Shown: piece by piece, positions 6,268 to 23,267 of the stretch
Layout: every line of letters starts with the position of its first letter
How positions within the stretch are numbered: position 1 is the stretch's first letter
From: Pseudodesulfovibrio piezophilus C1TLV30
GTDB lineage: Bacteria; Desulfobacterota; Desulfovibrionia; Desulfovibrionales; Desulfovibrionaceae
Direction of reading: 5' to 3'
NCBI RefSeq assembly: GCF_000341895.1
Contig: NC_020409.1
Coordinates: 3,182,411 to 3,214,410 of the forward strand
DNA length: 32,000 nucleotides
Translations under genes and position numbers: made by a program
Notes under the pieces: model-generated
The model's input: only the letters and a program-made list of their open reading frames with translations
The model's database searches: none
What the model was told of the DNA's origin: nothing

Positions 6268-6299
6268 ATCTCTACGACCACGCAAATGTAATATGAGTA

Positions 6300-7168: not shown

Positions 7169-7193
7169 AATTGCAACGTCAAATTGGTTACAA

Positions 7194-7430: not shown

Positions 7431-7484
7431 TCGGTTGAGGTCAGTCTTTTTTCATAATGCATTCATACTTTCAAGGAGGGCGGC

Positions 7485-7706: not shown

Positions 7707-10210
7707 TGGCTGCCAAAAATTTGCTTGTTGCCCTGGCTGGGCAGCCGAATTGTGGAAAATCCACAGTTTTCAATATGCTTACGGGGGCTCGGCAGCATGT
7801 TGCCAACTACCCCGGTGTCACTGTTGAAAAAAAATCAGGTTCGTTCAAAATGGGGACAACCCGCGTTGAACTGGTTGATCTCCCCGGAACGTACAGTCTG
7901 ACATCATATTCTCTGGAAGAGCGTGTCTCGCGTGATTTCCTGCTTGGGGACAACCCCGGCGTGGTTATCGATGTCGCAGATGCATCAAATCTCAAGCGAA
8001 ATCTCTACCTGACTCTGCAACTTCTGGAAATGGAGGTGCCGACACTCCTCAATCTGAACATGATGGATGTTGCTGAGCGGCGCAACCAGACCATTGATAT
8101 TGCTGGGTTGGAAAAAATCCTGGGTATTCCAGTTGTCCCGACCACAGCCAAGAAAGGTGAAGGGCGTGAAGCCCTGCAAGTCGCAGTGGAAAAGGCCCGA
8201 GAAAATCCCTCCGATGGGTTTTTCAAGATCGATTACAAAGGGCTTGAAGAGCACATCTCCGAGTTGGAAACACTGCTGGTGGAGGACCCGGTCCTCAGCG
8301 TGCAGTATCCGGTCCGCTGGTTTGCCATCAAGTTGTTGGAAGATGACGCCGAGGCTATTCAATTGCTTCGGCGAACACATCCTGATGCGGAGCAGGTTCT
8401 TATCAGGACGGCTCAGTGCCGTGAGCGCTTCGAAAAAGTATCCGGTAACAGTGCCGAACGCCACATAGCATTCACTCGGCACGGAATGTGCGCCAATATC
8501 GCGAAAAAAGTGGTGGTACTGCCTCAGAATCCCAAGAGAAGTTTGTCTGACCGGGCTGATAGATATATCTGCAATCGTATCCTTGGCCCCATCATTCTCA
8601 TGTGCATCCTGATGGTCTTGTATGAAGTCTCCATCGTTTTCGGAGGCTGGCTTGCCCAAAAAGTCTGGCCGCTTTGGGGAGGACTTGAGAATTTTGCAGC
8701 CAGTGTGCTGCCTGCCCCCGGTTTCATGGTCGATCCCCTCCTACGAGCCCTGGCGCAGTGGGTCGTTAAATCCACGACAGCCATTCTGAATTATCTGCCG
8801 ATCTTTTTTTTGCTTTTCAGTCTTATCGCCGCATTGGAAGATAGTGGATACATGCCACGAATGGCTTTTATTCTGGATCGCCTGTTTCGGCGTTTCGGAT
8901 TGCATGGACAATCCACATTGCCCATGATCCTTGGCGGTGTCTATGTGGGCGGTTGCGCTATTCCCGGTGTCATGGCGACCAAAGCGATCCCTGATGAACG
9001 GGCGCGGTTAGCGACCATTCTCATTGTCCCCATGATGAATTGTCTCGCGAAAGTCCCTCTTTATCTCATATTGATTGGGGCTTATTTTGCAGATGTGGGC
9101 GGGTTAGCCATGTTCTTTATCGCCACGGTGACACTGTTTATGGCACTTCCCGTCGCAAAACTCCTGTCATTGACTGTGCTCAAGAAGCGGGAGAGCGCCC
9201 CGTTCATCATGGAAATGCCTCCGTATCATGTGCCGACTCTCCAGGGCGTGTTGAGGCGGTCTTTGGAACGCATCTGGATGTTCATGAAAAAGATTGTGAC
9301 GGTGGTTTCGGCTGTTGCTGTAGTTGTTTTTGTGCTCATCAACTTTCCGGGTTTGTCGGCAGAGAGGCAAGCTCACTATGAGGAAGTTCGAGACAGTGCC
9401 ATTCAGGCTTTTGTGAAACAGGCGGACAAGACTGAATACAAGGATGTCATTACCACTGATGACGTTTTGCCGATTATTCTTTTCGGCGAGGCATTGAAGC
9501 ATTCGAAGATAGGGGTGACGGACAAAGAACAGTCCGCTGCCATCAATGCGGAATTTGAAGCGAAAAATCCCGTTTACTACGCTGTGGTCAAACGCAAGGG
9601 CAAGGACGGGAAAAAGCTCAATAAGGCGCTGAAAAAAGTGGTTCGAGCACGGAAGTCCGTGCGTCGTGAGATTCGGGCTGAGCGGTTTGAGTCAAGCTTC
9701 CTGGGAACCATGGGGCGTGCCTTGGAGCCGGTGACGCAATTTGCCGGATTCAACTGGCGTATCAATATCGCCTTGCTCTCCGCTTTTGCGGCTAAGGAAA
9801 ATAGCGCGGCAACCCTTGGTTCCATTTATGGTATCGATGGATCAGGGCAGTCTGTTCAGGAGACCATGAAAGCCGGGGAAGTCGGTTTTACCTCGCTTCA
9901 CGCCCTGGCGTTGATGCTGTTCATGGCCTTGTATCCCCCCTGCGTGCCGACATCCATCATGGTCAAGCATCAGTCGAATTCTACCGGGTGGATGTTGTTT
10001 TCCATCGGCTATCAGACATTACTCGGTTTGTTTGTGGCCAGTCTGGTTTTTACTGGCGGAAGCCTTCTTGGCCTGAGCGGATTCCAGGCCATGTGGGCTT
10101 TTTATGGCTTATGCGTCGCCACGACATTAGGCATGGCTTTGATTCCCACTCGCGAGGAAAAAGAGACTGAGATAATTACCCCGACATCTGTCAAAGAACA
10201 TTGCTCTTAA
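7706..10210 (+). CDS. feoB: Ferrous iron transporter FeoB
   Basis: 834 aa. N-terminal G-domain with G1 GQPNCGKSTVFN and G3 DLPGTYSL, followed by a polytopic membrane domain. It contains a long soluble Lys/Arg-rich insert (see findings). Confidence 0.95.
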   Translation: MAAKNLLVALAGQPNCGKSTVFNMLTGARQHVANYPGVTVEKKSGSFKMGTTRVELVDLPGTYSLTSYSLEERVSRDFLLGDNPGVVIDVADASNLKRNLYLTLQLLEMEVPTLLNLNMMDVAERRNQTIDIAGLEKILGIPVVPTTAKKGEGREALQVAVEKARENPSDGFFKIDYKGLEEHISELETLLVEDPVLSVQYPVRWFAIKLLEDDAEAIQLLRRTHPDAEQVLIRTAQCRERFEKVSGNSAERHIAFTRHGMCANIAKKVVVLPQNPKRSLSDRADRYICNRILGPIILMCILMVLYEVSIVFGGWLAQKVWPLWGGLENFAASVLPAPGFMVDPLLRALAQWVVKSTTAILNYLPIFFLLFSLIAALEDSGYMPRMAFILDRLFRRFGLHGQSTLPMILGGVYVGGCAIPGVMATKAIPDERARLATILIVPMMNCLAKVPLYLILIGAYFADVGGLAMFFIATVTLFMALPVAKLLSLTVLKKRESAPFIMEMPPYHVPTLQGVLRRSLERIWMFMKKIVTVVSAVAVVVFVLINFPGLSAERQAHYEEVRDSAIQAFVKQADKTEYKDVITTDDVLPIILFGEALKHSKIGVTDKEQSAAINAEFEAKNPVYYAVVKRKGKDGKKLNKALKKVVRARKSVRREIRAERFESSFLGTMGRALEPVTQFAGFNWRINIALLSAFAAKENSAATLGSIYGIDGSGQSVQETMKAGEVGFTSLHALALMLFMALYPPCVPTSIMVKHQSNSTGWMLFSIGYQTLLGLFVASLVFTGGSLLGLSGFQAMWAFYGLCVATTLGMALIPTREEKETEIITPTSVKEHCS

Positions 10211-10223
10211 GGAGGAGTATGAC

Positions 10224-10541
10224 ATGAAAAAAATGATGATTGTATTAACTTTGGCCGCATTGGTCGCCTTTGCAGGCAATGCCTTTGCTCACAGTCCGCT
10301 GATGAGTTGTTTTGACAATGGCGATAACACCGTGACCTGCGAAGGCGGATTTTCCGATGGGTCTTCTGCTTCGGGTGTCAAAATAACTGTTAAAAGCAGT
10401 GATGGTAAAGAATTGACTTCAGGAAATATGAATGAAGACAGCGAATTCAGTTTCGAGAAGCCCGCAGAAGCGTACATGGTTATTTTTGATGCCGGTGAAG
10501 GCCATACCGTTGAAGTGAATGGTGCGGACATCGTCGAATAG
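10224..10541 (+). CDS. Small secreted protein (beta-sandwich-like, NikL-like position), predicted mature N-terminus His
   Basis: 105 aa. The signal peptide ends GNAFA|HSP. The mature part has two Cys (MSCF, VTCEG) and a transthyretin/CarboxypepD_reg-like stretch (VKITVKSSDGKELTSGNMNEDSEFSFEKPAEAYMVIFDAGEGHTVEV). SD GGAGGAG lies upstream. Confidence 0.6.
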   Translation: MKKMMIVLTLAALVAFAGNAFAHSPLMSCFDNGDNTVTCEGGFSDGSSASGVKITVKSSDGKELTSGNMNEDSEFSFEKPAEAYMVIFDAGEGHTVEVNGADIVE

Positions 10542-10591
10542 GTGAAGAGAGCGTAGGGAGGATGTCTTCTCTGCGCTTTTTCATAATGACT

Positions 10592-10614
10592 AAAATGAGA
10601 ATAAGACTCATTTT
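10592..10614 (+). promoter_or_regulatory. Perfect 8-bp inverted repeat (Fur-box-like or RNA hairpin) ahead of the DUF4198-like gene
   Basis: AAAATGAG-aataaga-CTCATTTT, located 22 nt upstream of ATG 10637. The overlapping 19-mer TAAAATGAGAATAAGACTC matches 12/19 of the classical Fur box. Confidence 0.35.
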
Positions 10615-10636
10615 CAATTAACAAGGAGAGCATGAC

Positions 10637-11464
10637 ATGAAAAAGCGTTTGATTCCCTTTCTCACTGCCGTATGCGTCCTGACTGTGGTGGGGTCAGCCT
10701 TTGCCCACTTCATGGTGATGTACACCCCGGAAGTCGCTTTGCACAGCGGTTCGGATCTAGACATGCGTGTCTTGTTTACCCACCCTGCTGAGGCTGGGCA
10801 CATGATGGACATGGGCGGTATTGAGGAATTTTATGTACTCACCCAACGCGGTGATTCAAAGGTCAAAAAAACTGATTTGAAAGGGTATCTAAAAGATATC
10901 GAGTGGGCCAATCCGCATGCGAAGGCTCCTGCCTTTTCTGCCATGATTCCCAAAAAAGTCGTCCGTTCCATGGGCGATTATGTCTTTGTCATGAAGCCCG
11001 GACACTATTTCGAAAAGGAAGAAGGCGTCTACATGCAGCAGATCACCAAGCTGATCCTGAATGTCGGCGGCGTTCCCGGAAATTGGGCTGACCCTGTCGG
11101 CTTGCCGTGCGAAATCGTGCCTCTCATCAAGCCTTACGGTTTGTGGACAGGAAATGTTTTCAAGGCTCAGGTCTTGTCCGAGGGCAAACCTGTTGCTGGC
11201 GCGGAAGTGGAAGTCGAATTCATGAACCACATGCCGGATCTCAGCACCAACTCCATGCCTGCTGAAGGCACTGTTGAATACCCTCACGATGCTTTTGTCA
11301 CTCAGACAATCTATTCCGATGCCAATGGGTACATTGCCTTTGGCATTCCCAAAGCCGGTTGGTGGGGCTTTGCCGCACTCGGAGTCGGTCCTGAAAAAGA
11401 ATACAAAGGCAAGGAACTCGGTCAGGACGCAGTCATCTGGGTCAAAGCCGTGGATATGAAATAA
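10637..11464 (+). CDS. Periplasmic DUF4198-like (NikK/CbiK-type) metal-binding protein
   Basis: 275 aa. The signal peptide ends GSAFA|HFM, so the mature N-terminus is again His. An Ig/transthyretin-like segment reads KAQVLSEGKPVAGAEVEVEF. The family assignment is from memory of the DUF4198 layout and was not searched. Confidence 0.6.
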   Translation: MKKRLIPFLTAVCVLTVVGSAFAHFMVMYTPEVALHSGSDLDMRVLFTHPAEAGHMMDMGGIEEFYVLTQRGDSKVKKTDLKGYLKDIEWANPHAKAPAFSAMIPKKVVRSMGDYVFVMKPGHYFEKEEGVYMQQITKLILNVGGVPGNWADPVGLPCEIVPLIKPYGLWTGNVFKAQVLSEGKPVAGAEVEVEFMNHMPDLSTNSMPAEGTVEYPHDAFVTQTIYSDANGYIAFGIPKAGWWGFAALGVGPEKEYKGKELGQDAVIWVKAVDMK

Positions 11465-11505
11465 CGAATAAGCTCTCTCTGTCTCTCTAGCGAGCGCCTC
11501 CAGAA

Positions 11506-11541
11506 GGTGTGGCGGGTTTTACCATACCAGCCCGCCACACC
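11506..11541 (+). terminator. Strong hairpin after the DUF4198-like gene (possible terminator or processing site; no U-tail)
   Basis: GGTGTGGCGGG / CCCGCCACACC form a perfect 11-bp stem with a 14-nt loop. No T-run follows, so intrinsic termination is uncertain. Confidence 0.35.
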
Positions 11542-11558
11542 ACGACATTTCAAAGCAG

Positions 11559-12248
11559 GTGAACATGACGAACCTCCCTCAGATGCGAGCCATTGAACTT
11601 GAGGATATTTGCGAATTCCAGGTGCTGGATGCAGTCCAGATGACGGTACACCAATTCGCGGAATCCTTGAGCCATATCATTGATGCCAAGGATCACAGTA
11701 CTCACTCCCATTCCGAGGAGGTCGCCGTCATGTCCCAAACCATTGGCCAGCAAATGGGGCTGAGCGCAAAGCAGTCGGACATTCTTCACCTTGCAGGGCA
11801 TCTGCATGATATCGGGAAGGTCGGTATTCAGGATGCCATCCTGAAGAAACGTGGACCATTGACTCGAAAGGAATTCAATATCATCAAGAAACACCCGGTC
11901 ATAGGCGCACAAATCATGGCTCCAGTCGCTCCCTTTGCCGGAAAGAACGGCATTGTAAAAATGATTCTGCACCATCATGAACGGTTTGACGGGAATGGCT
12001 ATCCGGATGGACTTCGTGCGCGGAATATTCCTCTTGGCGCTCGTATTATCGCTGTGGCGGACAGTCTTTCAGCCATGTTGCAGGACCGTCCCTATCGACG
12101 GGCCATGTTTTATGAAGAAGCGCTCCAGGAAATCTACGATTGTTCCGGTTCTCAGTTTGATCCGGTGGTTGTCAATGCCCTGTTCAGTGTGAAGGGAATT
12201 ATCAAGACCTATTTGTGTTCATTGCATAAGAATAAGGATGTTGCATGA
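11559..12248 (+). CDS. Stand-alone HD-GYP domain protein (c-di-GMP phosphodiesterase family)
   Basis: 229 aa with HSEEVA, HLHDIGKVGI and HHHERFDGNGYPDGL (HD plus GYP motifs). No receiver or sensor domain. The listed start is GTG at 11559, and an in-frame ATG lies at 11565. Confidence 0.85.
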   Translation: MNMTNLPQMRAIELEDICEFQVLDAVQMTVHQFAESLSHIIDAKDHSTHSHSEEVAVMSQTIGQQMGLSAKQSDILHLAGHLHDIGKVGIQDAILKKRGPLTRKEFNIIKKHPVIGAQIMAPVAPFAGKNGIVKMILHHHERFDGNGYPDGLRARNIPLGARIIAVADSLSAMLQDRPYRRAMFYEEALQEIYDCSGSQFDPVVVNALFSVKGIIKTYLCSLHKNKDVA

Positions 12249-12913
12249 TCATGGGGAAGAAACACCCTTTGCCTCTTTGTGAGGTCATCGTCAAACCATC
12301 CGGTTCCGGGTTGGAAACCCGTCTTGTTCTTTTGGCGGCACTCCTGACAGTGATAGTGTGTGGGGGCATCATCATGGTTCGTCATGCCACGGCTACGGTC
12401 CAGGAAGCTCCCTCATGGCAGATGAATGCATTTACTGATCTTCGCTCTGAAGAGTTGGCAACATTCAACGCCTTGTATACAGCAGCTCCCGAAATTGAGG
12501 CATTTCATGAGGATGAAGACGGGCGTTGGCCTTCGGTCACTGAACTCAGAGCCGAGTTTGTCCCTCCTTTTGTGCAGGATGCGGCATGGCAACGAAATGG
12601 TGGGTTGGATTGGGCGCGAAGTCTCATCAGTACCAGTGACAAGCATATCGCTTGCTATCTCGGAAGTCCCATGGAGCAGGATAAATCCGGCTCTTTCCTG
12701 CTGATCATGTTGCATGGACATGTCAAAAAGGAAGGGAACGCAGGGGCATCCTCGCATGTGCCTTACGAGATCTGGCTTCACGCTTCACCCGTGGCCGAAT
12801 TCCCTGATTTGGTCACGGATCAGGCACTCATCAACGCGGGCTGGCGTGTGGTGGTGGCTCGAAAAGGTGAGGATGAAATGCGGCGGACCAAAGGTGAGGG
12901 GTATATCCAATGA
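12245..12913 (+). CDS. Uncharacterised single-pass membrane protein, translationally coupled between the HD-GYP gene and the ABC transporter
   Basis: 222 aa. One TM helix (LVLLAALLTVIVCGGIIMV) followed by a soluble domain of about 160 aa with no motif I recognise. ATGA overlaps occur at both ends (12245-12248 and 12910-12913). Confidence 0.55.
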   Translation: MIMGKKHPLPLCEVIVKPSGSGLETRLVLLAALLTVIVCGGIIMVRHATATVQEAPSWQMNAFTDLRSEELATFNALYTAAPEIEAFHEDEDGRWPSVTELRAEFVPPFVQDAAWQRNGGLDWARSLISTSDKHIACYLGSPMEQDKSGSFLLIMLHGHVKKEGNAGASSHVPYEIWLHASPVAEFPDLVTDQALINAGWRVVVARKGEDEMRRTKGEGYIQ

Positions 12914-13839
12914 TCAAAAAAATGTTTTTCCCTCTGGTATACATGAGCTTTATGTTTTTGTTCATTTCGGCGGGTGTTGTTTCCGCAGGGACAACGCTTC
13001 CTCGTATCGGGGTCACTTTGCATCCGTATTACAGTTTTGTCGCGGCGATTGTCGGTAACACGGCTGAAGTGGTCCCTCTTATTGGCGAGGGGTTCAACCC
13101 GCATAATTATCGGCCGCAACCTGAAGATATCAAGCGCTCCATGACCCTGGATGCCTTGGTCGTCAATGGGATAGGTCACGATGAATTCGCTTTTGAAATA
13201 GTGGAGGCGGCGGATATGAAAGGCACGTTGCCCATCATTTTTGCCAACAAGGATGTCTCCCTGATTCCCGTGGGAGGTCATCTTGATGGTAAAAAAATCG
13301 TGAATCCGCACACTTTTGTCTCGGTGACTGCTTCAGTCCGCCAGATATATACCATCGCTCAGGGACTGAGTGAGTTGTTTCCCGAGCATGCCGATCTCTA
13401 TCGCAGGAATGCCAGACGTTATGCAGCTCGACTCAGGCGTATGAAGGCGGAATACATGGAGCGTCTCGCCATGTTGCCGAGCATGGATTTTCGATGTGCG
13501 ACCATTCACGGTGGGTATGACTATCTTTTTCAGGATTTCGGACTTCAGGTCACGGCAGTGATTGAGCCCGGACATGGTCTCAAACCTACGGCAAGCCAAC
13601 TTGCCAGGACCATTGACGAAATAAAGCGGCTTGGGGTGGACGTTATTTTCACTGAAATGGCTTTCCCTGATAAATACGTGGATACCATTCACGAAGAAAC
13701 AGGGATTCGCATCAGACATCTCTCTCATTTGACAAGCGGCGAATATAGCAAAGACGGCTTTGAAAAGGGGCTGCGGGCCAATCTGGAAGCTCTGACCAGC
13801 GCCCTGATCGAAGCTCAAAGTTCCAAGCAAGGAGGTTGA
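12910..13839 (+). CDS. Metal ABC transporter substrate-binding protein (ZnuA/TroA cluster A-I)
   Basis: 309 aa with a signal peptide. The three canonical His-containing blocks are present: TLHPYYSF, NPHNYRP and NPHTFVS. Metal specificity (Zn, Mn or Fe) cannot be determined from sequence. Confidence 0.85.
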   Translation: MIKKMFFPLVYMSFMFLFISAGVVSAGTTLPRIGVTLHPYYSFVAAIVGNTAEVVPLIGEGFNPHNYRPQPEDIKRSMTLDALVVNGIGHDEFAFEIVEAADMKGTLPIIFANKDVSLIPVGGHLDGKKIVNPHTFVSVTASVRQIYTIAQGLSELFPEHADLYRRNARRYAARLRRMKAEYMERLAMLPSMDFRCATIHGGYDYLFQDFGLQVTAVIEPGHGLKPTASQLARTIDEIKRLGVDVIFTEMAFPDKYVDTIHEETGIRIRHLSHLTSGEYSKDGFEKGLRANLEALTSALIEAQSSKQGG

Positions 13840-13840
13840 G

Positions 13841-14569
13841 ATGACAGTCACCCATATGACGGGCGGTCCCTCTGTGCACTTCGAGAATGTCGGTCTTTCA
13901 CTTGGCGGAAACACCATCCTCGACGGGGTGAATTTTACGGTGGCAGCCGGAACCATTCATTGTGTTATCGGTCCCAATGGAGGGGGGAAGACTTCACTCA
14001 TTCGGTCCCTGCTCGGTCAAATGCCCCATACTGGGGATATTCGTATCTGCTGGGGGAATGATTGGACCATGGGGTATGTGCCTCAGGCCCTTGAGTTCGA
14101 TGATTCACTCCCAATGACCGTTGCCGATTTCATGGCGATGATCGGGCAACGTCATCGTCCTGCTTTCATGGGCTTGAAACGGGATAGCCGGACTTTGGTT
14201 GAGAATGTTCTGGCTCGAGTTGACATGCTCGACAAAAGAGATCGACCTTTTGGCTCCCTGTCCGGCGGTGAACGGCAACGCGTGCTGCTGGCACAGGCCC
14301 TGATGCCTTCCCCGAAACTGCTCGTGCTGGATGAACCCGCATCCGGGTTGGACAAAGCAGGTGCTGCCGTCATGCATTCCATTGTTCAGGAATTGTCGGA
14401 CAACGGAACGACTGTCCTTATCATTCATCATGATCTTGGTATAGTTCGGGAAATAGCCCATGGGGTGACCTGCATAAATCAACACATGCTTTTCTCCGGC
14501 GATCCGCAGCAGGAATTGACCTCGGAGCGCATTTTTACCATCTTCTCCTCTTCTGCAAAGGCGGCTTGA
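13841..14569 (+). CDS. Metal ABC transporter ATP-binding protein
   Basis: Walker A GPNGGGKTS, signature LSGGERQR, Walker B LLVLDEP, H-loop IIHHD. Confidence 0.9.
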   Translation: MTVTHMTGGPSVHFENVGLSLGGNTILDGVNFTVAAGTIHCVIGPNGGGKTSLIRSLLGQMPHTGDIRICWGNDWTMGYVPQALEFDDSLPMTVADFMAMIGQRHRPAFMGLKRDSRTLVENVLARVDMLDKRDRPFGSLSGGERQRVLLAQALMPSPKLLVLDEPASGLDKAGAAVMHSIVQELSDNGTTVLIIHHDLGIVREIAHGVTCINQHMLFSGDPQQELTSERIFTIFSSSAKAA

Positions 14570-15480
14570 TTTTCATGCATTCAGTGTACGATTTTATTCG
14601 GTCTCCACTTATGGAGTGGGGCAGGGCTGGGGTATTGCCGGAATTTTTCCAATACGCTTTTGTGGTCAATGCGCTTTTGTGTGCTTTGATTGCCGGGCCG
14701 TTGCTGGGTGGGATAGGAACCATGGTCGTTTCCAAACGATTGGCTTTTTTTTCCCAGGCAGTGGGGCAGGCTGCCTTGACCGGTGTCGCCCTTGGCGTGC
14801 TTCTCGGGGAGCCTGTCACAGCTCCGTATGCCTCTCTTTTCGGTTTTTGCATTCTTTTTGCCTTGACCATGAATTATACCAGGAACCGCACGCGTATGAA
14901 GCAGGATACTGTTATCGGTGTCTTTCTCTCTATTTCGCTGGCAGTGGGTGCCTGCGTTTTGCTTTATGTCACAGCTCGGGTCAACATGCATGTCCTCGAC
15001 AATATCCTGTTCGGTTCCATTCTGACGGTCAATGACACTGATATGAATGTCCTTCTGGGTATCGGGGCCATTTGTATGGCGGTGGGGATTCCCACCTATA
15101 ATAATATGCTGCTGTCCAGTTTCAATTCCAGTCTGGCTCAGGTTCGCGGGGTCAATGCTACCCTGCACGATTATATCTTCGTGCTCATGATTACTGTGAT
15201 TACCGTAGCGTGCCTCAAGATCGTCGGCGCGGTACTGGTGGAAGCGCTTCTGATCATTCCTGCGGCTTCGGCACGGAATATCAGCCGTTCCATCAAGGGT
15301 TTTTTCGGATACAGTGTCGTTTTTGCCACCGTGAGTTGCCTGCTTGGCATCATTGTCCCCATGCAGTTTGAAATACCGGTGCCGTCCGGTGGGGCAATTA
15401 TTCTGGTCGCGTCATTCCTTTTTGCGCTTACTGCCGGAATTCGGGCTGTTTCCGGTTCCTACAAGGAGGCCTCGGCATGA
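14566..15480 (+). CDS. Metal ABC transporter permease (ZnuB/TroC type)
   Basis: 304-aa polytopic hydrophobic protein. The start overlaps the ATPase stop and the stop overlaps the next start. Confidence 0.9.
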   Translation: MIFMHSVYDFIRSPLMEWGRAGVLPEFFQYAFVVNALLCALIAGPLLGGIGTMVVSKRLAFFSQAVGQAALTGVALGVLLGEPVTAPYASLFGFCILFALTMNYTRNRTRMKQDTVIGVFLSISLAVGACVLLYVTARVNMHVLDNILFGSILTVNDTDMNVLLGIGAICMAVGIPTYNNMLLSSFNSSLAQVRGVNATLHDYIFVLMITVITVACLKIVGAVLVEALLIIPAASARNISRSIKGFFGYSVVFATVSCLLGIIVPMQFEIPVPSGGAIILVASFLFALTAGIRAVSGSYKEASA

Positions 15481-16412
15481 TCAAAAAACTGACATTGGCA
15501 CTCTTTGTTTCACTTCTTGTCGTTGTCGTCTCCAAGGCAGCAGTCCCTGATCTTCCGGCTCAGAGGAGCGAAACCATAGTCCTTGCCTCTCTTGATGTTG
15601 TGCAAGCACTTGGAGAGGCGCTGACGGAGCAGACATCCATCAGGGTTCTCAATGCCATTCCGCAGGGGTATTCAATGCAGGGGCAAAGGGCATACCTGAA
15701 GAAGCATCAGGACATCTTTTCCCAATTGGCAGAGCATGCAGCAGGGGTGCTTTCCGTGACCTCTGCCTGGAGCGATGATCCTCTTTATCAGTGGGCTCGA
15801 CGAGCCAATATCCGAATCGTGAATATTGATGTGACCAAGCCTCTTGATGGATATGGTGCGGGCGTGCCTCTGCTCCAGGTGGAGGGAGCGTATTCGCCGT
15901 ATGTCTGGCGCAGTCCCGCTAACCTGACTCGTATGGCCGTGATTGCGGCTGATGATCTATCCCGTCTGGTTCCCCATGAAGCGCAGACCATAGAGGAGAA
16001 TCTCAAGAAGTTGCAATCCGCATTGTTTCAATTGCGCAGTCGTTATGAAAACGCCTTCACCCAAATGGAGTTGGTTGATCTTGCTGCATTGACGGGTGAC
16101 TACACCTATCTCATGGATGAATTCGGCCTGGGCATTCGCTTTTATACCCTCAAACCCGAAGGACAGTGGACCGCAGACGAAGAACAAGCTCTTTCTCAAC
16201 ATCTGAGTCAATCAGGGATTGTCGGGGTCATTTGTCCATGGGAGCCGGAAGAAAAGGGACGTCAGGTTATCAGGAAAGGCGGCGCTGTCCCCATCGTGTT
16301 GAAAAAGTATGTGTCCTCACTGGGTGTGGACCCGGTTACATCTTTGGTTCGTTGGTATGACGATAATTTATCCCAGTTGCTTGGGGCGCTGAAAACTACA
16401 ACAGGAGGCTGA
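15477..16412 (+). CDS. Second ZnuA/TroA-fold binding-protein paralogue lacking the canonical His ligands
   Basis: 311 aa with a signal or anchor helix. It has the same overall block order as the first binding protein. The His blocks are replaced: LASLDVV for LHPYYSF, IPQGYSM for NPHNYRP, and SPYVWRSP for NPHTFVS. Confidence 0.65.
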   Translation: MIKKLTLALFVSLLVVVVSKAAVPDLPAQRSETIVLASLDVVQALGEALTEQTSIRVLNAIPQGYSMQGQRAYLKKHQDIFSQLAEHAAGVLSVTSAWSDDPLYQWARRANIRIVNIDVTKPLDGYGAGVPLLQVEGAYSPYVWRSPANLTRMAVIAADDLSRLVPHEAQTIEENLKKLQSALFQLRSRYENAFTQMELVDLAALTGDYTYLMDEFGLGIRFYTLKPEGQWTADEEQALSQHLSQSGIVGVICPWEPEEKGRQVIRKGGAVPIVLKKYVSSLGVDPVTSLVRWYDDNLSQLLGALKTTTGG

Positions 16413-16585
16413 TGATGGATACGGTCATTGCTCTTATCATTATTGGTGCGGCTGCTTGTTTTCTTTTTTTCAAAATGAAGGCCAAGTTTTCATCCAAGGG
16501 AGGATGCGGGTGCGGATGCGGGTGCGGTACGGAAAGTTGCTGCGATGGTGATGAGGAAAAACACTCGGTACCGCATGATGACTAA
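16412..16585 (+). CDS. Cys-rich single-TM miniprotein (FeoB-associated Cys-rich membrane protein type); too short for the ORF track
   Basis: 57 aa read by hand: MMDTVIALIIIGAAACFLFFKMKAKFSSKGGCGCGCGCGTESCCDGDEEKHSVPHDD. The ATG overlaps the TGA of the upstream gene (16410-16414). TAA lies at 16583-16585, in frame. The (GC)4 run is encoded by a 12-nt tandem GGATGCGGGTGC x2 at 16502-16525. Confidence 0.6.
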   Translation: MMDTVIALIIIGAAACFLFFKMKAKFSSKGGCGCGCGCGTESCCDGDEEKHSVPHDD

Positions 16586-16748: not shown

Positions 16749-17057
16749 ATGAACTTTGCTACAATTGCCGCGTTAAGAAAATATTTGTCGATTAAACACA
16801 GTTTGCCGGGCCGGATAAGGATCAAGTTCTCGCTTGCCATCATGTCTGATCCCGAGGCGCTCAAGCTTGCCCAGTCTCCGCCGGAGATGCCCGAAGCTGT
16901 TACGGATACGCAATTGAATTTGTTTTCTCGTACTTTATTGATTGAATATGACGCAGAGCGAGTGCCACCTGCCTTGCTTGAAGAACTGATCACAACAGAT
17001 GATGATGTGAGGGCAGCAGAAGTTGTCGAAGAATTACACCAAGCTCTCTTTGTCTAG
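16749..17057 (+). CDS. Small soluble HMA-like (Cys-less, GRIR-motif) protein
   Basis: 102 aa from ATG 16749, with SD CAGGAGGG upstream. The track start at 16671 is a TTG lying in the leader. The motif SLPGRIRIKF followed by ...TLLIEYD resembles the N-terminus of the ATPase at 18365 (SIPGRIRFES). There is no CxxC. Confidence 0.55.
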   Translation: MNFATIAALRKYLSIKHSLPGRIRIKFSLAIMSDPEALKLAQSPPEMPEAVTDTQLNLFSRTLLIEYDAERVPPALLEELITTDDDVRAAEVVEELHQALFV

Positions 17058-17500: not shown

Positions 17501-17537
17501 GAATTGATTTTATAACGGTTACCGTTAAAAATCATTC
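17501..17537. promoter_or_regulatory. 37-bp AT-rich palindrome (candidate Fur-family operator) ahead of the ATPase operon
   Basis: GAATTGATTTTA-TAACGGT-T-ACCGTTA-AAAATCATTC. The core 17513-17527 is a perfect 7-1-7 palindrome. The arms resemble Fur half-sites (AATCATT). It shares the 8-mer ATGAGAAT (reverse strand, 17532-17539) with the repeat at 10592. Confidence 0.45.
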
Positions 17538-17608
17538 TCATGGTTGTACCATCTTTCTACACTATGGTAGCAGTATTCATCCTGCAACGTGAAGGAGTCT
17601 TGAAGAAA

Positions 17609-17803
17609 ATGAATGAGTTGACGGAAAAATTACTATTGGTTGCTGCGGGGGCTGCAGTTGGGGCGCTCGGTTATATGGCCGTGAAACATCCTGATGAACT
17701 CAAGGAGTTCATGGGAGATGCGGCTGAGCTTGGGCAGAAATTTTTTGAGAAAACCATGGCTGACGTGGCCGATAAAATGGGTCATTCGAAGGACGCCGCT
17801 TAA
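17609..17803 (+). CDS. Small glycine-zipper membrane protein (FezA/FezC-like or YtxH-like candidate)
   Basis: 64 aa from ATG 17609, with GGAG at 17594-17597. The track start at 17540 adds an unlikely 23 aa. N-terminal helix LLLVAAGAAVGALGYMAV, then an amphipathic acidic helix (PDELKEFMGDAAELGQKFFEKTMADVADKM). Confidence 0.6.
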   Translation: MNELTEKLLLVAAGAAVGALGYMAVKHPDELKEFMGDAAELGQKFFEKTMADVADKMGHSKDAA

Positions 17804-17814: not shown

Positions 17815-18276
17815 ATGGCTATCAACAGAATCGCATATTTGATTGCCGGAGCTGCGCTTGGAGCTGCCGGTATGGCATTGGCCAAGGAAGGCAAAGGGGA
17901 AAACCTGCTGCAATCTCTGGTACAAGGGGGACATGGACTGACTGACAAGTTGCTTGGGACAGTGGAGACCATCAAGGAAGACGTGGAAGATTATCTGGCC
18001 GAGGCCAAGTTCGCGCATGAGCAGAAGGCGAAAGAGGCTGCGAAGCCCGCTGCAGCCGCTGCTGCCACGGCAACTGTAGCCACAACAGCTGCCAAGGCTG
18101 CCACAAAGAAGCCCACCGCAAAGAAATCGGCAGCGAAAAAAACTCCAGCCAAGAAAGCAGCACCCAAAAAGTCTGCGGCCAAGAAACCCGCTGCCAGGAA
18201 GCCTGCGGTGAAAAAGACGACGGCAAAAAAAAATAGTCCGAAGAAGACGGCGACCAAAGCTCCTACCGGCGAATAG
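17815..18276 (+). CDS. Glycine-zipper membrane protein with a histone-H1-like Lys/Ala/Pro-rich C-terminal tail
   Basis: 153 aa with SD AAGGAAGAG upstream. N-terminal helix IAYLIAGAALGAAGMALA, an amphipathic segment, then from about aa 71 a tail rich in KKP/AKK repeats (TKKPTAKKSAAKKTPAKKAAPKKSAAKKPAARKPAVKKTTAKKNSPKK). Confidence 0.7.
   Translation: MAINRIAYLIAGAALGAAGMALAKEGKGENLLQSLVQGGHGLTDKLLGTVETIKEDVEDYLAEAKFAHEQKAKEAAKPAAAAAATATVATTAAKAATKKPTAKKSAAKKTPAKKAAPKKSAAKKPAARKPAVKKTTAKKNSPKKTATKAPTGE
18025..18273 (+). repeat. Low-complexity coding repeat: (A/T/S/P)-A-K-K units forming the poly-basic tail
   Basis: Reiterated AAGAA(A/G)...GC(N) codon units. The antisense ORF 17991..18347 is its mirror artefact. 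Confidence 0.8.
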
Positions 18277-18364
18277 TTCGAATCCATTGGTTCTTTCGGT
18301 GCATGGCAGGCGTGGTTTTCTGCTTCACCGGCCCCATTAACAAGCATGAGATCATGGTTGGTGT

Positions 18365-20503
18365 ATGAATATTGTCCGTAGCATTCCCGGTCGCATCCGT
18401 TTTGAGTCGGAATCCGAGCAGGCAGTCCTGTATATACAGGAGTATCTTCAGAAAGTCGTAGGTGATGATCTTGGCGAGATAGAGTTCAGCTACAGTCAAC
18501 GGTCAGGTCGTGGACTGGCGCTGTTTTCCCCTTGCCCGAATCTGACTGCGAGGGTGCTGGAAGCCATGGGGGCCGCTATGGCCGAGCCTCCTGTTCCGGA
18601 ACTTCCTACCTGTCGAACCGCCGCTCCAGGCGATGAGATGGCATGTACATTGCCTGCGCTTGGATCAGCCTTATATGAAGCTGAAACTATTGAGAATCCT
18701 TTTTGGATTGTTGCCAAGAAAGTGCTCAATTTTTACATGACCCGGCTGTTCATGCCTGCGACGATTCGTCCTTACTGGACAGTCTTCAGCGTTTCACCTT
18801 TGATCTTCGAGGGAGTCCGATCTTTATTCCAGCGTCAATTGAACGTTGCCGTGCTTGATGCCGCAGCCATCGGGTCTGCCCTGGCCATGCGGGACTTCAA
18901 TACTGCGGGAACCATTCATTTGTTGCTCGACATCAGTGAAACCCTGGAAGACTGGACTCGAGAGAAGTCTCGAAGTGACCTCGCTTCCTTATTTCGGGGT
19001 GATGGCAAACCCGTCTGGGTTTTACGCAAGGGTGAAGAGGTCCAGACTCCGCAGGAGAACCTTGTTTCTGGAGATTTGGTTATTGTCCGTTCCGGGGCGC
19101 GTATTCCTGTGGATGGAGTTGTTGCCGATGGTACGGCCATGGTCAACCAGGCTTCCATGACGGGAGAGCCGTTGTCTGTGAAGCGTGGACCGGGCAAGGA
19201 AGTGTATGCCGGGACAGTCGTTGAGGAAGGCAAGATCATTATTCTCTCCGAAGGAGTTGGTGATGAAACCCGATTCGCCAAAATTGCTCAGGTTATTGCT
19301 GATTCCGAAAACATGAAGGCGGACATTCACGGCCAAGCTGTGAAGTTGGCCGACAAGATTGTTCCATATTCCTTTCTGCTTTCCGGGGTGATTTTCGCAG
19401 TGACCAGGAACTGGATGCAGGCCGCAGCCGTTCTTATGGCGGATTATTCCTGTGCCATAAAACTCGCGACACCTCTTGCCGTGCGTTCGGCCATGTTGGA
19501 GTCTGCCCACTGCGGAGCGTTGATCAAAGGGGGAAAATTTATTGAGCAATTGGCTCAGGTCGATGCCATTGTGCTGGACAAGACCGGCACCCTGACCAAG
19601 GCCTCTCCTGAGGTCGTGGATATCTGCCCGGTCAATGGCTACACCCGTGAATTTATCCTGCGCAATGCCGCCTGCATGGAGGAACATTTCCCCCATCCTG
19701 TGGCAGACGCGGTTGTCAGGAAAGCCGATGAAGAAGGTTTCAATCATGATGAAAAGCATGCAGAAGTTGAATATATTCTTGCCCATGGCATAGCGACGAC
19801 GCTGGATGGTCAACGCATGATTCTCGGCAGCAGGCACTTTGTCCACGAGGATGAGGGGATTGATTTGGACGAAGCTGAGGCTCAGATCTCTCGGTGTTCC
19901 GAGAGCGGATTGTCCACACTGTATATGGCTGTCGGTGGGAAGCTCGCCGGTGTCATTGCTCTGCAAGACCCGCTCAGGGAGTCGGCCTATCGGTTCATCA
20001 GGCGGCTGGAGAACATGGGCATGAAGCGGATCATCATGCTGACCGGTGATGGAGAAGCAACGGCCAGGAATGTTGCCGCTGAATTGGATATTCAGGAATA
20101 CTATGCGCAGGTTTTGCCGGACGAAAAGACTGATCTGGTGGATTCCCTGCGAGAGGAAGGGTATACTGTGGCCATGGTGGGTGACGGTATCAATGATTCT
20201 GCCGCACTAAGTCGAGCTGATGTGGGAGTCTCCATGAAGCATGGAGCCGATATTGCCCAGGAGGCGTGTGATGTGATGCTGACAAGCGAACGCCTGGACA
20301 GTCTCATGGATGCCATGTCCCTTTCGAAGATGGTCATGCGTCGGATTAAGCGGAATTATCGATTTATTGTCGGGAGCAATACTCTTTTCATCGGTCTCGG
20401 TGTGGCAGGGATCATTTCTCCGGCCATGCTTGCCTTTTTGCATAATTCAGGAACGGTTTTGACCTGCGCTCACAGTATGCGCCCCATGCTCCCTGAACAA
20501 TAA
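18365..20503 (+). CDS. P1B-type heavy-metal ATPase with an S-C-A membrane motif (P1B-6 / FezB-like) and an N-terminal Cys-less HMA-like domain
   Basis: 712 aa. TGE (SMTGEPLSV), DKTGT (19577-19591), MLTGDGEATA and VGDGINDSAAL. The membrane helix before the P-domain reads ADYSCAIKLATPLAV, with S-C-A at 19448-19456 in place of CPC. Only two hydrophobic helices precede the actuator domain. The N-terminus SIPGRIRFESE...GLALFSP is HMA-like without CxxC. Confidence 0.9.
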   Translation: MNIVRSIPGRIRFESESEQAVLYIQEYLQKVVGDDLGEIEFSYSQRSGRGLALFSPCPNLTARVLEAMGAAMAEPPVPELPTCRTAAPGDEMACTLPALGSALYEAETIENPFWIVAKKVLNFYMTRLFMPATIRPYWTVFSVSPLIFEGVRSLFQRQLNVAVLDAAAIGSALAMRDFNTAGTIHLLLDISETLEDWTREKSRSDLASLFRGDGKPVWVLRKGEEVQTPQENLVSGDLVIVRSGARIPVDGVVADGTAMVNQASMTGEPLSVKRGPGKEVYAGTVVEEGKIIILSEGVGDETRFAKIAQVIADSENMKADIHGQAVKLADKIVPYSFLLSGVIFAVTRNWMQAAAVLMADYSCAIKLATPLAVRSAMLESAHCGALIKGGKFIEQLAQVDAIVLDKTGTLTKASPEVVDICPVNGYTREFILRNAACMEEHFPHPVADAVVRKADEEGFNHDEKHAEVEYILAHGIATTLDGQRMILGSRHFVHEDEGIDLDEAEAQISRCSESGLSTLYMAVGGKLAGVIALQDPLRESAYRFIRRLENMGMKRIIMLTGDGEATARNVAAELDIQEYYAQVLPDEKTDLVDSLREEGYTVAMVGDGINDSAALSRADVGVSMKHGADIAQEACDVMLTSERLDSLMDAMSLSKMVMRRIKRNYRFIVGSNTLFIGLGVAGIISPAMLAFLHNSGTVLTCAHSMRPMLPEQ

Positions 20504-20891: not shown

Positions 20892-21503
20892 ATGAAGCAA
20901 TTTCTTCCAAAGAATCCGTTTGCGGCTGCTGGTGTGGGAGCACTGGTTGGCGCAGGAATAGCCGGGTACAAAATGTGGTCATTGTATAAGGGCGGTGAAG
21001 TTTCCAAGCAGGAAGCAGTCGCTGGTGTCGTCAAGCAGAGTCTCTTGTTTGGCGGCGTTGCAGCAGCGACGACCGTGGCTGGAGGGCAGGGCGGCGGCGG
21101 TATAGGTATTGCTGCCATGTCATTAGTCGGCATGGGGGGCCGAGGAGGAGGTGGCGGTGGAATGTTGCCAGGACTTTTCTCCGCTTCCCTTGGTGGAGGT
21201 CGAGGAGGCGGTGGAGGCATGGGCGGCTCGGGCGGCGGTGGTCGCGGTGGTATGGGGGGGAATGGAGGATCCGGTGCTGGCGGCGGAGGAAGTCGTGGGA
21301 ATCAAAGCACAGGAATTCTTGATTCAATATCCAACGCCGTGAGTGGTCTTTTGGTTTCCGATGAGCCGAGCGAACAGGCGCTTGAAGAGTCGGTGGATCG
21401 AGCCTTGGAAAAAGGAACCGTTTCGGCTACCGGTCTTGACGAAGAAGGGCTTGAAAGCGATGAGGATCGTGATGAGGAATCTTCAGAGGAAGAGAAAGCT
21501 TAG
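20892..21503 (+). CDS. Glycine-zipper membrane protein with a Gly/Arg-rich disordered region and an acidic C-terminal tail
   Basis: 203 aa. N-terminal helix PFAAAGVGALVGAGIAGY and a second hydrophobic stretch SLLFGGVAAATTVAG. Residues about 64-136 are roughly 70% Gly with RGG units (GGRGGGGGGM, GGGRGGGGGMGGSGGGGRGGMGGNGGSGAGGGGSRG). Residues 157-203 are Asp/Glu/Ser-rich (DEEGLESDEDRDEESSEEEKA). Confidence 0.65.
   Translation: MKQFLPKNPFAAAGVGALVGAGIAGYKMWSLYKGGEVSKQEAVAGVVKQSLLFGGVAAATTVAGGQGGGGIGIAAMSLVGMGGRGGGGGGMLPGLFSASLGGGRGGGGGMGGSGGGGRGGMGGNGGSGAGGGGSRGNQSTGILDSISNAVSGLLVSDEPSEQALEESVDRALEKGTVSATGLDEEGLESDEDRDEESSEEEKA
21081..21299 (+). repeat. Low-complexity (GGN)n coding repeat
   Basis: GGC/GGT/GGA/GGG runs. 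They produce the mirror-image poly-Pro ORF on the minus strand (20768..21220). Confidence 0.8.
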
Positions 21504-21532: not shown

Positions 21533-22708
21533 ATGAATGAGCGTACTGTCACTGTCGAGGGTGATAACGATCTTGTCGCGGCACGGAAAAGAGCAGCTCT
21601 TTCGGTACTGCTCAACATGATACTTGCTCTGGTAAAAGGTGGTGCCGGGATTCTTTCCGGCAGTGCCGCCCTTATAGGTGATGCGGTCCACTCCGCGGCC
21701 GATGTTTTTGCATCCGGGGCTGCACTTGTCGGTCTGTGGATTGCCGGTAAAAAGCACCCGTCATTTCCTTTCGGATTATACAAGGCCGAAAATATCGCGA
21801 CGTTGGTCATTGCTTTGGCCGTGATTATGGTTGCGTACGAGATTGGCCGGGATGCGCTCATTGGTGGTGAAACCATACCGGACACTGCTCTTGCCTTGCC
21901 GGTTGCCATTGGCTCGTTGATTGTTGCCGTTGTCTTTGGGCTTTTTCAGCTTCGATGCGGGAAAAAACTTGGGTCCCCGGCCTTGATCGCCGATGCGCGG
22001 GACTATCTGGTGGATGGTGCATCCACGGGAGTGGTGATCATTGGTTTGATCGGAGCCAGTTTTGGTTTTGCTTTGGATCGATGGGCTGCCGGTGCGGTTT
22101 CACTTTTTGTGCTTTGGGCCGGTTTCGAGCTTTTGGTTGATGCGGTGCGAGATTTACTTGATGCCGCCATGCCTCGGGAGTTGGTGCACGATCTCAGTTC
22201 GCTTGTGGAAAAACAACCTTTGGTCTCACGAGTGCTCGGCTGTGTCGGGCGGCAGGCCGGTGGTCGTTATATCGCCAATCTTGATATCCTTCTGCGCACC
22301 AATGACCATCTGGTCGCTGACAGGGTGGCAGATCGTCTGGAAGTGCTGGTGAAGAAAGAGTTTCCGCGAATTGTCATGGTCCATGTGAGGACACACTTCG
22401 GACACAGTGAGTCTCATCGACGGATCACGCCTGTCATTGATCATGGTGGAGCCATGGCCGAAGGACTGGCTTCTGCCCCTTGGTTCATGGTGGAGGATTT
22501 GGATGGACAGACCAAAGCAGTTACCGAGTGCGCATTTGTCAGGAATCCTCACAGGGATGCGCCTAAACGTCGTGGACTGATGGTCGGGCAGATGCTTATG
22601 GAGCTTAAACCTGATCAGGTCATCAGGCCTGATGGACATGCCGGAACAGCTCTTGCCCTGTTGGAAGAGGCCGGAGTGGATATTCTCCGTATAGGTGAGG
22701 AAAAGTAA
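21533..22708 (+). CDS. Cation diffusion facilitator (CDF) transporter fused to a C-terminal NifX/NifB-like (FeMo-cofactor-binding family) domain
   Basis: 391 aa. CDF TM2 motif SAALIGDAVHSAAD and TM5 motif LIADARDYLVD. The cytoplasmic CDF C-domain covers LLDAAMP...IVMVHV. From about H295 (nt 22415) there is an extra module of about 95 aa (ITPVIDHGG...APWFMVEDLDGQ...FVRNPH...LKPDQVI...ALLEEAGVDILR) whose pattern resembles the dinitrogenase Fe-Mo cofactor biosynthesis (NifX/NafY/NifB-C) fold. Confidence 0.8.
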   Translation: MNERTVTVEGDNDLVAARKRAALSVLLNMILALVKGGAGILSGSAALIGDAVHSAADVFASGAALVGLWIAGKKHPSFPFGLYKAENIATLVIALAVIMVAYEIGRDALIGGETIPDTALALPVAIGSLIVAVVFGLFQLRCGKKLGSPALIADARDYLVDGASTGVVIIGLIGASFGFALDRWAAGAVSLFVLWAGFELLVDAVRDLLDAAMPRELVHDLSSLVEKQPLVSRVLGCVGRQAGGRYIANLDILLRTNDHLVADRVADRLEVLVKKEFPRIVMVHVRTHFGHSESHRRITPVIDHGGAMAEGLASAPWFMVEDLDGQTKAVTECAFVRNPHRDAPKRRGLMVGQMLMELKPDQVIRPDGHAGTALALLEEAGVDILRIGEEK

Positions 22709-22760: not shown

Positions 22761-23192
22761 CTACTTGGCGAGCGTGCGACGGTTCTGATAGATGTGCATT
22801 CCGAGCAGGCTGAGGAATGCGCTGCCCGCCACAACATGCCAGCGTTCGGAATAGTAGACGATTCCGATGGCTGCAATCAAGGATGCCGCTAACCCTCGCT
22901 TGACGTATCTGCGCGCCTTGCGGCCATTGAGTGTCTTCTGGGCACTGGCCATATTGGCCTTGACCTTGTTCATGTCGATGCCAAGGCCTTCGGCGATCTT
23001 GGTCAGAATATTCTCGGCAGTGATTTTGGTCTTGTCGAAAAGAATGAGAATGCTTCCCACACGTTTGTTGACCTGTACCTGAATCACCCCTTTGACTTCC
23101 AGCAGGGAATCTCGGACCTTGTAACCGAAATCGGCAACTTTGAGGGCCTCGTTTCTGAACCGGATACGTCCTTCTTCTGCGACTGCGTTCAT
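22761..23192 (-). CDS. Cys-less HMA-like (GRIR-motif) domain protein with an Arg-rich linker and two C-terminal TM helices
   Basis: 143 aa from ATG 23192, with SD AAGGAGAGAGAC upstream. The track start at 23225 is a GTG. Sequence reads EEGRIRFRNEALK...VKGVIQVQVNKRVGSILILFD, then RKARRYVKRG, then LAASLIAAIGIVYY and VVAGSAFLSLLGMHIY. Confidence 0.6.
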   Translation of the reverse strand: MNAVAEEGRIRFRNEALKVADFGYKVRDSLLEVKGVIQVQVNKRVGSILILFDKTKITAENILTKIAEGLGIDMNKVKANMASAQKTLNGRKARRYVKRGLAASLIAAIGIVYYSERWHVVAGSAFLSLLGMHIYQNRRTLAK

Positions 23193-23267
23193 GTCTCTCT
23201 CCTTGCTTTGTAACTGTGCTGTCACAAATAGAGTTTTGCACGAAAAGGCGAAGGGGTGTCAATCATC

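Follow-up and report, generated by a model that had tools for sequence, protein, structure and literature searches.

Ferrosomes are membrane-bounded vesicles in which bacteria store iron phosphate, and they were genetically defined only in 2020-2022. The gene discussed here, BN4_20120 of the marine piezophile Pseudodesulfovibrio piezophilus C1TLV30, belongs to a ferrosome (fez) cluster and encodes a protein of 153 amino acids (aa). It lies within a stretch of 32,000 nucleotides (nt) of contig NC_020409.1 (positions 3,182,411 to 3,214,410 of the forward strand), here called the window, and coordinates below refer to that window. The gene and the fez system were already known. What is new is the combination: what appears to be a scaffold of the FezA/PacL type, fused to a tail that is like histone H1 in its composition.

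For the N-terminal part, the closest described proteins are those of the PacL family (DUF1490) of M. tuberculosis. These have a single transmembrane (TM) helix, a cytoplasmic helix of Glu/Ala repeats, a variable intrinsically disordered region (IDR) and, optionally, a His-rich motif (PMC9374683). The Glu/Ala helix has as its binding partner the metal-binding domain of the cognate P1B-6-like ATPase, and the stability and clustering of this ATPase depend on the helix (PMC9374683). The C-terminal region of PacL is predicted to be cytoplasmic, and acts on the cytosolic metal-binding domain of the ATPase (PMC9374683, PMC13460109). DUF6110 is related to DUF1490/PacL, and PacL-like proteins share operons with P-type ATPases (PMC9374683).

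For the tail, the closest described proteins are Hc2 and a number of granule proteins. Chlamydial Hc2 carries Lys/Ala-rich pentamer repeats, the number of which differs between strains (PMC2848022). PhaF of Pseudomonas and PhaM of Cupriavidus necator have H1-like C-terminal domains that tether granules of polyhydroxyalkanoate (PHA) or polyhydroxybutyrate (PHB) to the nucleoid (PMC13052382, PMC9239181). AlgP of P. aeruginosa has KPAA repeats of H1-like composition and is found on granules of polyphosphate (polyP), where its C-terminal domain is needed for even spacing (PMC13052382, PMC9239181). In PhaF, PhaM and AlgP the H1-like repeat binds DNA non-specifically, and if it is lost the granules clump or fuse (PMC13052382, PMC9239181).

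C. difficile ferrosomes rebuilt in E. coli from FezA and FezB only pile up at the cell poles, and an engineered connection with the nucleoid is needed to prevent this (10.1101/2025.09.22.677801). In a recent review on how organelles are positioned, ferrosomes appear in the introduction only, and no positioning system is listed for them (PMC13052382). No mention of a ferrosome protein with a tail that is Lys-rich or like H1 was found in the literature searched, which did not include the Nature 2022 and 2023 ferrosome papers.

The BN4_20120 protein

Grant et al. (Suppl. Table 4, bioRxiv 10.1101/2020.01.10.902569) list BN4_20120 of P. piezophilus C1TLV30 as a GxxxG protein of Group 2-10, with 153 aa and the motif YLIAGAALGAAGMA. 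Because lengths and motif strings are identical to those in the published fez tables, the gene studied here is this already catalogued GxxxG protein of the Fez cluster, in the FezA position. The gene and its parts are as follows, with the basis of each in brackets.

17815..18276, + strand: BN4_20120, 153 aa, putative FezA-type Group 2-10 GxxxG ferrosome scaffold with an H1-like tail (open reading frame (ORF), ribosome binding site, homologues, Grant et al. Suppl. Table 4)
17818..17886, + strand: hydrophobic Ala/Gly-rich helix with GxxxG (G12, G16, G19), residues 2-24, predicted membrane anchor (AlphaFold2 (AF2), Kyte-Doolittle, invariant residues)
17899..18024, + strand: conserved helix, predicted cytoplasmic, residues 29-70 (invariant columns, hhalign, DUF6110 match)
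18025..18099, + strand: Ala/Thr-rich linker KAKEAAKPAAAAAATATVATTAAKA, residues 71-95 (composition; AF2 low-confidence helix continuation to residue 93)
18100..18273, + strand: polycationic tail of the PAKKA/SAAKK type, predicted disordered, residues 96-153, with 21 K/R in 56 aa (periodicity, predicted local distance difference test (pLDDT) <50, sub-threshold HC2/H1-like matches)

The original prediction, made from the letters of this stretch alone, had described residues ~71-152 as almost only K, A, P, T and S in KKP/AKK units. Counting bears this out: there are 29 A, 24 K, 12 T, 8 P and 3 S, which makes 92.7% K/A/P/T/S, and with 25 basic residues and 1 acidic one the net charge is +24. The Shannon entropy is 2.40 bits, versus 3.69 for residues 1-70. 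Of 7,014 segments of 82 aa, taken from 26 ORFs of the window, none is lower in entropy or more positive in net charge than the tail. Reading the window in all six frames turns up no other segment that is both rich in K/A/P/T/S and dense in K.

The tail is bipartite. An Ala/Thr-rich linker (residues 71-95) is followed by a stretch (residues 96-153) that holds ten pentads of the form x3-KK, with KK (in one case RK) at 98, 103 and so on up to 143. At a lag of five residues, K/R coincide 19 times. In 200,000 shuffles that preserve the composition the maximum was 14, and none reached 19. AF2, run with 12 homologues, predicts helices at residues 2-24 and 29-93 and nothing structured after these, at a mean pLDDT of 55. 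Over residues 89-151 the pLDDT is below 50, and the tail is predicted to be disordered.

In the DNA, the repeat has only a degenerate period of 30 base pairs (bp), with a match of 77%, and the codons for Lys and Ala are mixed. It follows that the repeat is old and has been maintained at the level of the protein, and that no recent expansion by slippage is involved.

The gene starts with ATG, preceded by the Shine-Dalgarno sequence AGGAAG at 5-6 nt, and the stop codon of the preceding gene is 11 nt away. From the end of the gene to fezB, the gene of the P1B-6-type ATPase FezB, it is 88 nt. A run of nine A's lies within the coding region of the tail, at 18225-18233 (GCA AAA AAA AAT); with slippage there, the final ~17 residues would be lost or recoded.

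Two antisense ORFs were considered and rejected. The one at 17991-18347 (- strand, 118 aa) has a Phe/Ala/Gly-rich product, which is what the Lys/Ala repeat gives when read in reverse complement, a mirror artefact. The other, at 17972-18226 (- strand, 84 aa), reads differently and has no independent support; it is regarded as an artefact and not as a gene. Conservation, ribosome binding site and synteny all favour the + strand.

As for the N-terminal domain, the first ~75 residues are 50-86% identical among close relatives. The original prediction had a glycine-zipper helix anchor the protein, and such a helix is indeed present at the N-terminus, as G12xxxG16xxG19. These three glycines are invariant in 12 relatives, as are Y8, A11, A17 and A21, and the Kyte-Doolittle mean of the helix over 19 residues is 1.59. 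The conserved helix that comes next ends in the acidic motif ETIKEDVEDYLAEAK (nt 17965-18009), in which E51, E55, D56, E58, D59 and E63 are invariant among the relatives.

Among 5.8 billion proteins searched, 11 are clear relatives. A profile run against 1.84 billion cluster representatives gave 86 clusters when the threshold was E<=1e-3, and 12 when it was E<=1e-10. Short proteins (70-110 aa) of the FFLGGIALGALGAV type also come within reach of the Group 2-10 profile, with E values from 1e-8 to 1e-6. In their motifs these resemble Group 2-4 of Grant et al., which is the home of D. magneticus FezA (DMR_28320). When the N-domain profile is aligned with DUF6110-type, FezA-like proteins, hhalign reports a probability of 99.1% (E=2e-18). 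Among 78 family members, 53 match DUF6110, 15 match YtxH and 10 match DUF1490; a Pfam scan of the BN4_20120 N-domain itself gave no match to DUF1490.

Going by these sequence comparisons, the protein is best described as a divergent relative of the DUF6110/DUF1490 (PacL) scaffolds. By analogy with PacL, residues 1-75 would serve FezB as a scaffold of the PacL kind. Homology of the N-domain to FezA's group appears strong, and to FezA itself indirect.

BN4_20120 clusters with fezB and has a conserved GxxxG, as do the Fez GxxxG proteins in Group 2 of Grant et al. The layout predicted for it is also that of PacL1/2/3: an N-terminal TM helix, an acidic cytoplasmic helix, and a C-terminal IDR of variable length. 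The PacL genes, like this one, lie directly upstream of the gene for a P1B-6(-like) ATPase. There are differences as well. Residues 71-153 (18025-18273) contain no His, Cys or Asp, so the His-rich metal-binding motif, optional in the PacL family, is absent, and the IDR is a polycationic pentad repeat instead. The ATPase partner would be an iron pump that forms an organelle, whereas that of PacL is a Zn/Cd exporter in the plasma membrane.

With Hc2 the protein shares short tandem repeats rich in Lys, Ala and Pro, and its own repeats are also predicted to be disordered. Hc2 is however a soluble nucleoid protein without a membrane anchor, while BN4_20120 has a predicted one, and the likeness is no evidence of common descent.

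PhaF, PhaM and AlgP are bipartite: an N-terminus that binds the organelle is joined to a disordered repeat rich in Lys, Ala and Pro. BN4_20120 has this architecture too, and a shared function would be by analogy. In contrast, the granules these proteins serve lack a lipid bilayer, and their N-terminal domains are not homologous to that of BN4_20120, for which Pfam and NCBIfam gave no phasin or AlgP family match. The repeats also differ. PhaF and AlgP have KPAA tetrads over ~150 aa, whereas the ten x3-KK pentads here span ~55 aa. The tail motif of PhaM is reportedly PAKKA; the paper PMC3556143 contains no description of it.

What the tail may do

The favoured reading, held tentatively and at somewhat less than even confidence, is that the tail is a lineage-specific tether or spacer that binds the nucleoid or another polyanion, carried by a FezB scaffold predicted to face the cytoplasm. 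The GxxxG helix would anchor this FezA-type protein in the ferrosome membrane. By analogy with PacL1 and CtpC, the acidic ETIKEDVEDYLAEAK helix, as the counterpart of the PacL Glu/Ala repeat, would bind the R-rich N-terminal domain of FezB, and the scaffold would stabilise or cluster FezB in the organelle membrane. In the Pseudodesulfovibrio type of lineage, the C-terminal 60-80 residues would form a disordered polycation on the cytoplasmic face that binds polyanions non-specifically. Nucleoid DNA would be the most probable partner, with polyP or RNA as possible alternatives. The tail would then tether or space the ferrosomes and aid their distribution at division, as PhaF/PhaM and AlgP do for granules. 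It would be an add-on module, dispensable for ferrosome formation in general.

All of this supposes that the tail is in the cytoplasm. When K/R are counted over 15 residues on either side of the helix, 66 of 78 family members have more of them on the C-terminal side (mean 2.9 vs 1.1). This bias, the helix being the most conserved segment, and the cytoplasmic position of the PacL region together suggest that the anchor is not cleaved and that the C-terminus is in the cytoplasm. The mineral of ferrosomes is ferrous phosphate, and the original prediction had preferred contact of the tail with polyphosphate or an iron-phosphate surface, naming a tether to the nucleoid as another possibility. Contact with the mineral needs a luminal tail. 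With the tail across the membrane from the mineral, the idea is disfavoured, and tethering to the nucleoid is the better-precedented of the two.

The gene has kept its place in related loci. The full order, with an HMA_2 protein, a small GxxxG protein, the BN4_20120 homologue, an ATPase of ~711-736 aa and a convergent HMA_2-TM gene, is present in L001, L004, L006 and L007. The core pairing of homologue and ATPase is seen in L005 (a contig of 982 bp) and L008, so that in all six of these loci, as in the window, the homologue is directly upstream of the ATPase gene.

The tails were compared over 23 Group 2-10-type sequences, in which they range from 6 to 112 aa overall. That tail length might vary among strains had been put forward as a check by the original prediction, and among these relatives it does vary: 14 of the 23 have basic K/A/T/P/S tails of 40-112 aa with net charges of +8 to +27, several of them with lag-5 periodicity. 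A basic tail is also present in the distant member P0036, with the same synteny. Basic composition persists among the relatives despite divergence of the sequence, which suggests selection on the composition of the tail. Outside the Group 2-10 type, the wider family has no long basic tails, and short ones (17-23 aa) are sporadic.

Quite a few points weigh against the tether. The N-domain scores 19.4 bits on DUF6110, for which the gathering score is 26 (E=1.1e-3, profile positions 5-74 of 85); a relative, P0033, passes at 27 bits. The flanks of the anchor helix are charge-neutral in BN4_20120, with 1 K/R on the N side and 1-2 on the C side, depending on where the helix is taken to end. The gene was first annotated as "exported protein of unknown function". 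Its N-terminus can be read as a Sec signal (MAINR, a hydrophobic stretch, then ALA|KE), and the resemblance of ALA|KE to such a signal would account for the annotation. The literature search gave no work on P. piezophilus ferrosomes, or on the DNA or polyP binding or the topology of this protein.

The likeness of the tail to H1 and Hc2 is compositional only, because all model scores are below their cut-offs. The best Pfam match of the tail is HC2 (PF07382, E=1e-6), at 29.4 bits vs a cut-off of 40, and the NCBIfam H1-like models score 24.7 vs 80 (NF038053) and 16.7 vs 135 (NF038052). The H1-like tail of the original prediction therefore stands as a matter of composition; its likeness to Hc1 does not, the Pfam match being to Hc2 and sub-threshold.

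The same list continues with the tails of relatives. In 8 of the 23 sequences the tail is acidic and rich in E/D, at 18-46 aa and net -2 to -16. The orthologues of Halodesulfovibrio (L001, net -16) and Desulfohalovibrio reitneri (L008, net -6) are among these. One of the 23 has no tail. The locus structure is the same with basic tails, with acidic ones and with none. FezA of D. magneticus, where ferrosomes have been shown experimentally, is only 86 aa and lacks a long tail, versus 153 aa here, and in P. piezophilus the fez system is known from its genes (Grant et al. bioRxiv supplement). Orthologues lacking the tail at an otherwise unchanged locus are what the original prediction had named as counting against it, and L001, L008 and the 86-aa FezA largely fit that description.

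Because acidic-tail orthologues occupy the same locus, and FezA is so short, the basic tail is best seen as a lineage-specific accessory and not as a conserved part of the system. Given the length of D. magneticus FezA, any tethering role would be lineage-specific as well. A neighbour-joining tree of the N-domain, which is rough and weakly supported given its 75 residues, places an acidic subclade within the basic crown clade and the basic-tailed P0036 near the base. This placement suggests at least two switches of tail charge.

The acidic tails are explained most economically by a brush in which the sign of the charge is immaterial. The tail would be an entropic or electrostatic bristle on the cytoplasmic side that keeps vesicles from fusing or aggregating, and that perhaps bends the membrane by crowding. 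What matters would be a long, highly charged, disordered chain, and not a specific polyanion partner. Tails of +8 to +27 or -2 to -16, all low-complexity and in the same synteny, suit this well, as do the disorder predicted by AF2 and a fast turnover of sequence with composition kept. The authors of the AlgP work also weigh modulation of surface charge as an inhibitor of granule fusion (PMC9239181). Such a brush would have to be dispensable, since about a third of the wider family (22 of 61 motif-bearing members) is essentially tailless, with under 15 residues beyond the domain, and D. magneticus FezA has 86 aa in all. A chain of +24 cannot remain unbound amid the DNA, RNA and anionic lipid of the cytoplasm, and the strict periodicity of the pentads suggests more than bulk charge. 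On balance the brush is a serious rival, somewhat less likely than the tether, which stays the favoured reading.

Perhaps, at the other extreme, the tail does nothing much. It could be a near-neutral appendage of low complexity, drifting, maybe through changes of frame in GAA/AAG-rich DNA, with all function in the first 75 residues. The extreme variation in length, sequence and charge sign would follow from this, as would the missing tail of many family members. The +1 frame of the Halodesulfovibrio DNA that encodes the acidic tail (L001 8217-8351) is K/R-rich and interrupted by stops, the richness arising from the fact that a shift of register turns GAA repeats into AAG. The converse is weak: shifted frames of the basic tail in the window (18025-18276) are mixed to moderately acidic. 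That the charge switched through a frameshift is speculative, given that the shifted frames hold stops and no alignable remnant was found. Drift is also hard to square with a basic composition that is kept over at least 10 clusters with unalignable tails, with lag-5 periodicity in several. Mixed synonymous codons show long maintenance, and the tails are never hydrophobic, nor ordinary in composition. Drift thus seems improbable.

Equally improbable is an action on the mineral by a tail that is exported or faces the lumen. In that case the helix would serve either as a signal peptide or as an anchor of type II, and the lysines would concentrate phosphate or template ferrous phosphate. The Sec-like N-terminus and the "exported" annotation fit, and the anionic mineral would offer a partner. 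Unlike in cleaved signal peptides, however, the helix with its invariant GxxxG is the most conserved part of the protein, and the positive-inside bias of the family and the cytoplasmic PacL region point to the cytoplasm. The tails of the acidic orthologues would moreover affect phosphate in the opposite way.

That the tail folds onto a cytoplasmic leaflet rich in phosphatidylglycerol and cardiolipin, where it sorts lipids and promotes curvature or budding, is again unlikely: a +24 tail is tethered within nanometres of the membrane, and membrane shaping has already been proposed for GxxxG Fez proteins (bioRxiv 10.1101/2020.01.10.902569), but the aromatic or hydrophobic residues typical of membrane-binding polybasic motifs are lacking, the predicted helix of ~65 residues (29-93) between anchor and repeats would keep the repeats off the membrane, and acidic-tail orthologues could not bind in this way at all.

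If the tail is a tether, as tentatively favoured here, a natural FezA-type scaffold that carries the kind of tail known for spacing granules is a concrete candidate for ferrosome positioning. It would join three fields between which there is no citation in this matter, namely those on Fez GxxxG proteins, on PacL/DUF6110 scaffolds and on H1-like granule tethers. The basic-to-acidic switches on a conserved scaffold also amount to a natural experiment on charged IDRs at organelle surfaces. A bolder version, which must be called rather unlikely, is that this would be the first built-in positioning module described for a lipid-bounded bacterial iron organelle. Through the PAKKA tail, ferrosomes would be coupled either to the nucleoid or to granules of polyphosphate, which would supply phosphate for the mineral. 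Sister lineages would have swapped to an acidic tail with another partner, and tail charge would be an evolvable 'address label'. If the tail is only a dispensable brush, what is left is a modest improvement of the annotation.

The fez locus and its surroundings

The other features of the locus are listed here, again with their basis or particulars in brackets.

18365..20503, + strand: FezB, P1B-6-type ATPase, 712 aa, BN4_20121 (N-terminal R-rich RSIPGRIRFESE, TM4 DYSCAIK, TM6 HNSGT)
17609..17803, + strand: small GxxxG protein, Group 2-11, BN4_20119, motif LVAAGAAVGALGYM (supplement entry; ORF reaches back to 17540)
16749..17057, + strand: soluble HMA_2 protein with R-rich motif SIKHSLPGRIRIKFS, Group 3-1, BN4_20117, 102 aa (Pfam HMA_2; supplement entry)
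22761..23225, - strand: FezC-like protein, HMA_2 domain and C-terminal hydrophobic helices (Pfam HMA_2 E=1e-10)
20892..21503, + strand: second GxxxG protein of the cluster, 203 aa, N-terminal GxxxG helix AAAGVGALVGAGIAGY (Gly/Arg-Gly core, GGGRGGGGGG..., and acidic C-terminal tail of net -16)
21533-22708, + strand: cation diffusion facilitator (CDF) transporter (C-terminal extension of ~100 aa, residues ~290-391, without family match)
12910-16412: two ZnuA-like binding proteins and an ABC transporter
16412-16585, + strand: FeoB-associated Cys-rich membrane peptide, 57 aa (PF12669 just under cut-off; (CG)4 run GGCGCGCGCGTESCC)

Grant et al. give BN4_20121 as a protein of 712 aa with N-terminus MNIVRSIPGRIRFES, TM4 DYSCAIK and TM6 HNSGT, which is identical to FezB in the window. 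It thus shows the hallmarks of P1B-6 ATPases, SCA in TM4 and HN in TM6 (PMC13460109). The original prediction spoke of a putative iron pump next to the tailed protein, and FezB, as a P1B-6 ATPase, corresponds to it. The surroundings are an iron-homeostasis island with Fur (5740-6267), FeoB (7706-10210) and the CDF transporter.

BN4_20119 is annotated with 87 aa (17540-17803). The ATG at 17609 gives 64 aa, with the Shine-Dalgarno sequence GAAGGAG at 17591-17597, and equivalent small ORFs directly upstream in L001, L004, L005, L006 and L007 have 62-74 aa. From these sequences, the true start is probably the ATG at 17609.

A near-perfect palindrome of 31 bp, TGATTTTATAACGGT-T-ACCGTTAAAAATCA, lies at 17505-17535, ~75 nt before the small GxxxG gene. 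It is a candidate operator and unique in the window, with 0 expected by chance. It was not found upstream of the fez genes in L001 and L004, and the single match in L004 lies elsewhere. Scans for promoters and terminators stayed at background level, with no terminator between BN4_20120 and fezB, and no Rfam families were found in the window.

The second GxxxG protein (20892-21503) has the second-lowest entropy in the window and matched no family in Pfam or NCBIfam. It has homologues in L001 (192 aa) and L004 (131 aa), both with weaker acidic tails, and L006 has an untranslated gene of 181 aa in the same position. In L007 and L008 no gene was called at the matching position. A 'coacervate coat' of opposite charges, formed by the BN4_20120 tail and the acidic tail of this Gly-rich protein, was considered and dropped, as charges do not co-vary consistently across the window, L001 and L004.

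The FezC-like gene is convergent and downstream of fezB, as it also is in L001, L004, L006, L007 and L008. The CDF transporter is similar to MamB and MamM at 119 and 100 bits, below the cut-off of 350, and its gene is absent in L004, L006, L007 and L008. The Cys-rich peptide at 16412-16585 lies between the ABC transporter and the fez genes, distant from feoB.

The island can be compared with L006. There, 1-3850 contains AAA_3, a DUF2201 metallopeptidase-VWA protein, a 152-aa protein, Fur and HD_5, and the fez genes come right after HD_5. The same set stands at 2646-12248 of the window, with feoB and DUF4198 added between Fur and HD_5. Between HD_5 and the fez genes the window also has an insertion of DUF6162, the ZnuA-ABC genes and a second, divergent ZnuA-like gene (15477-16412).

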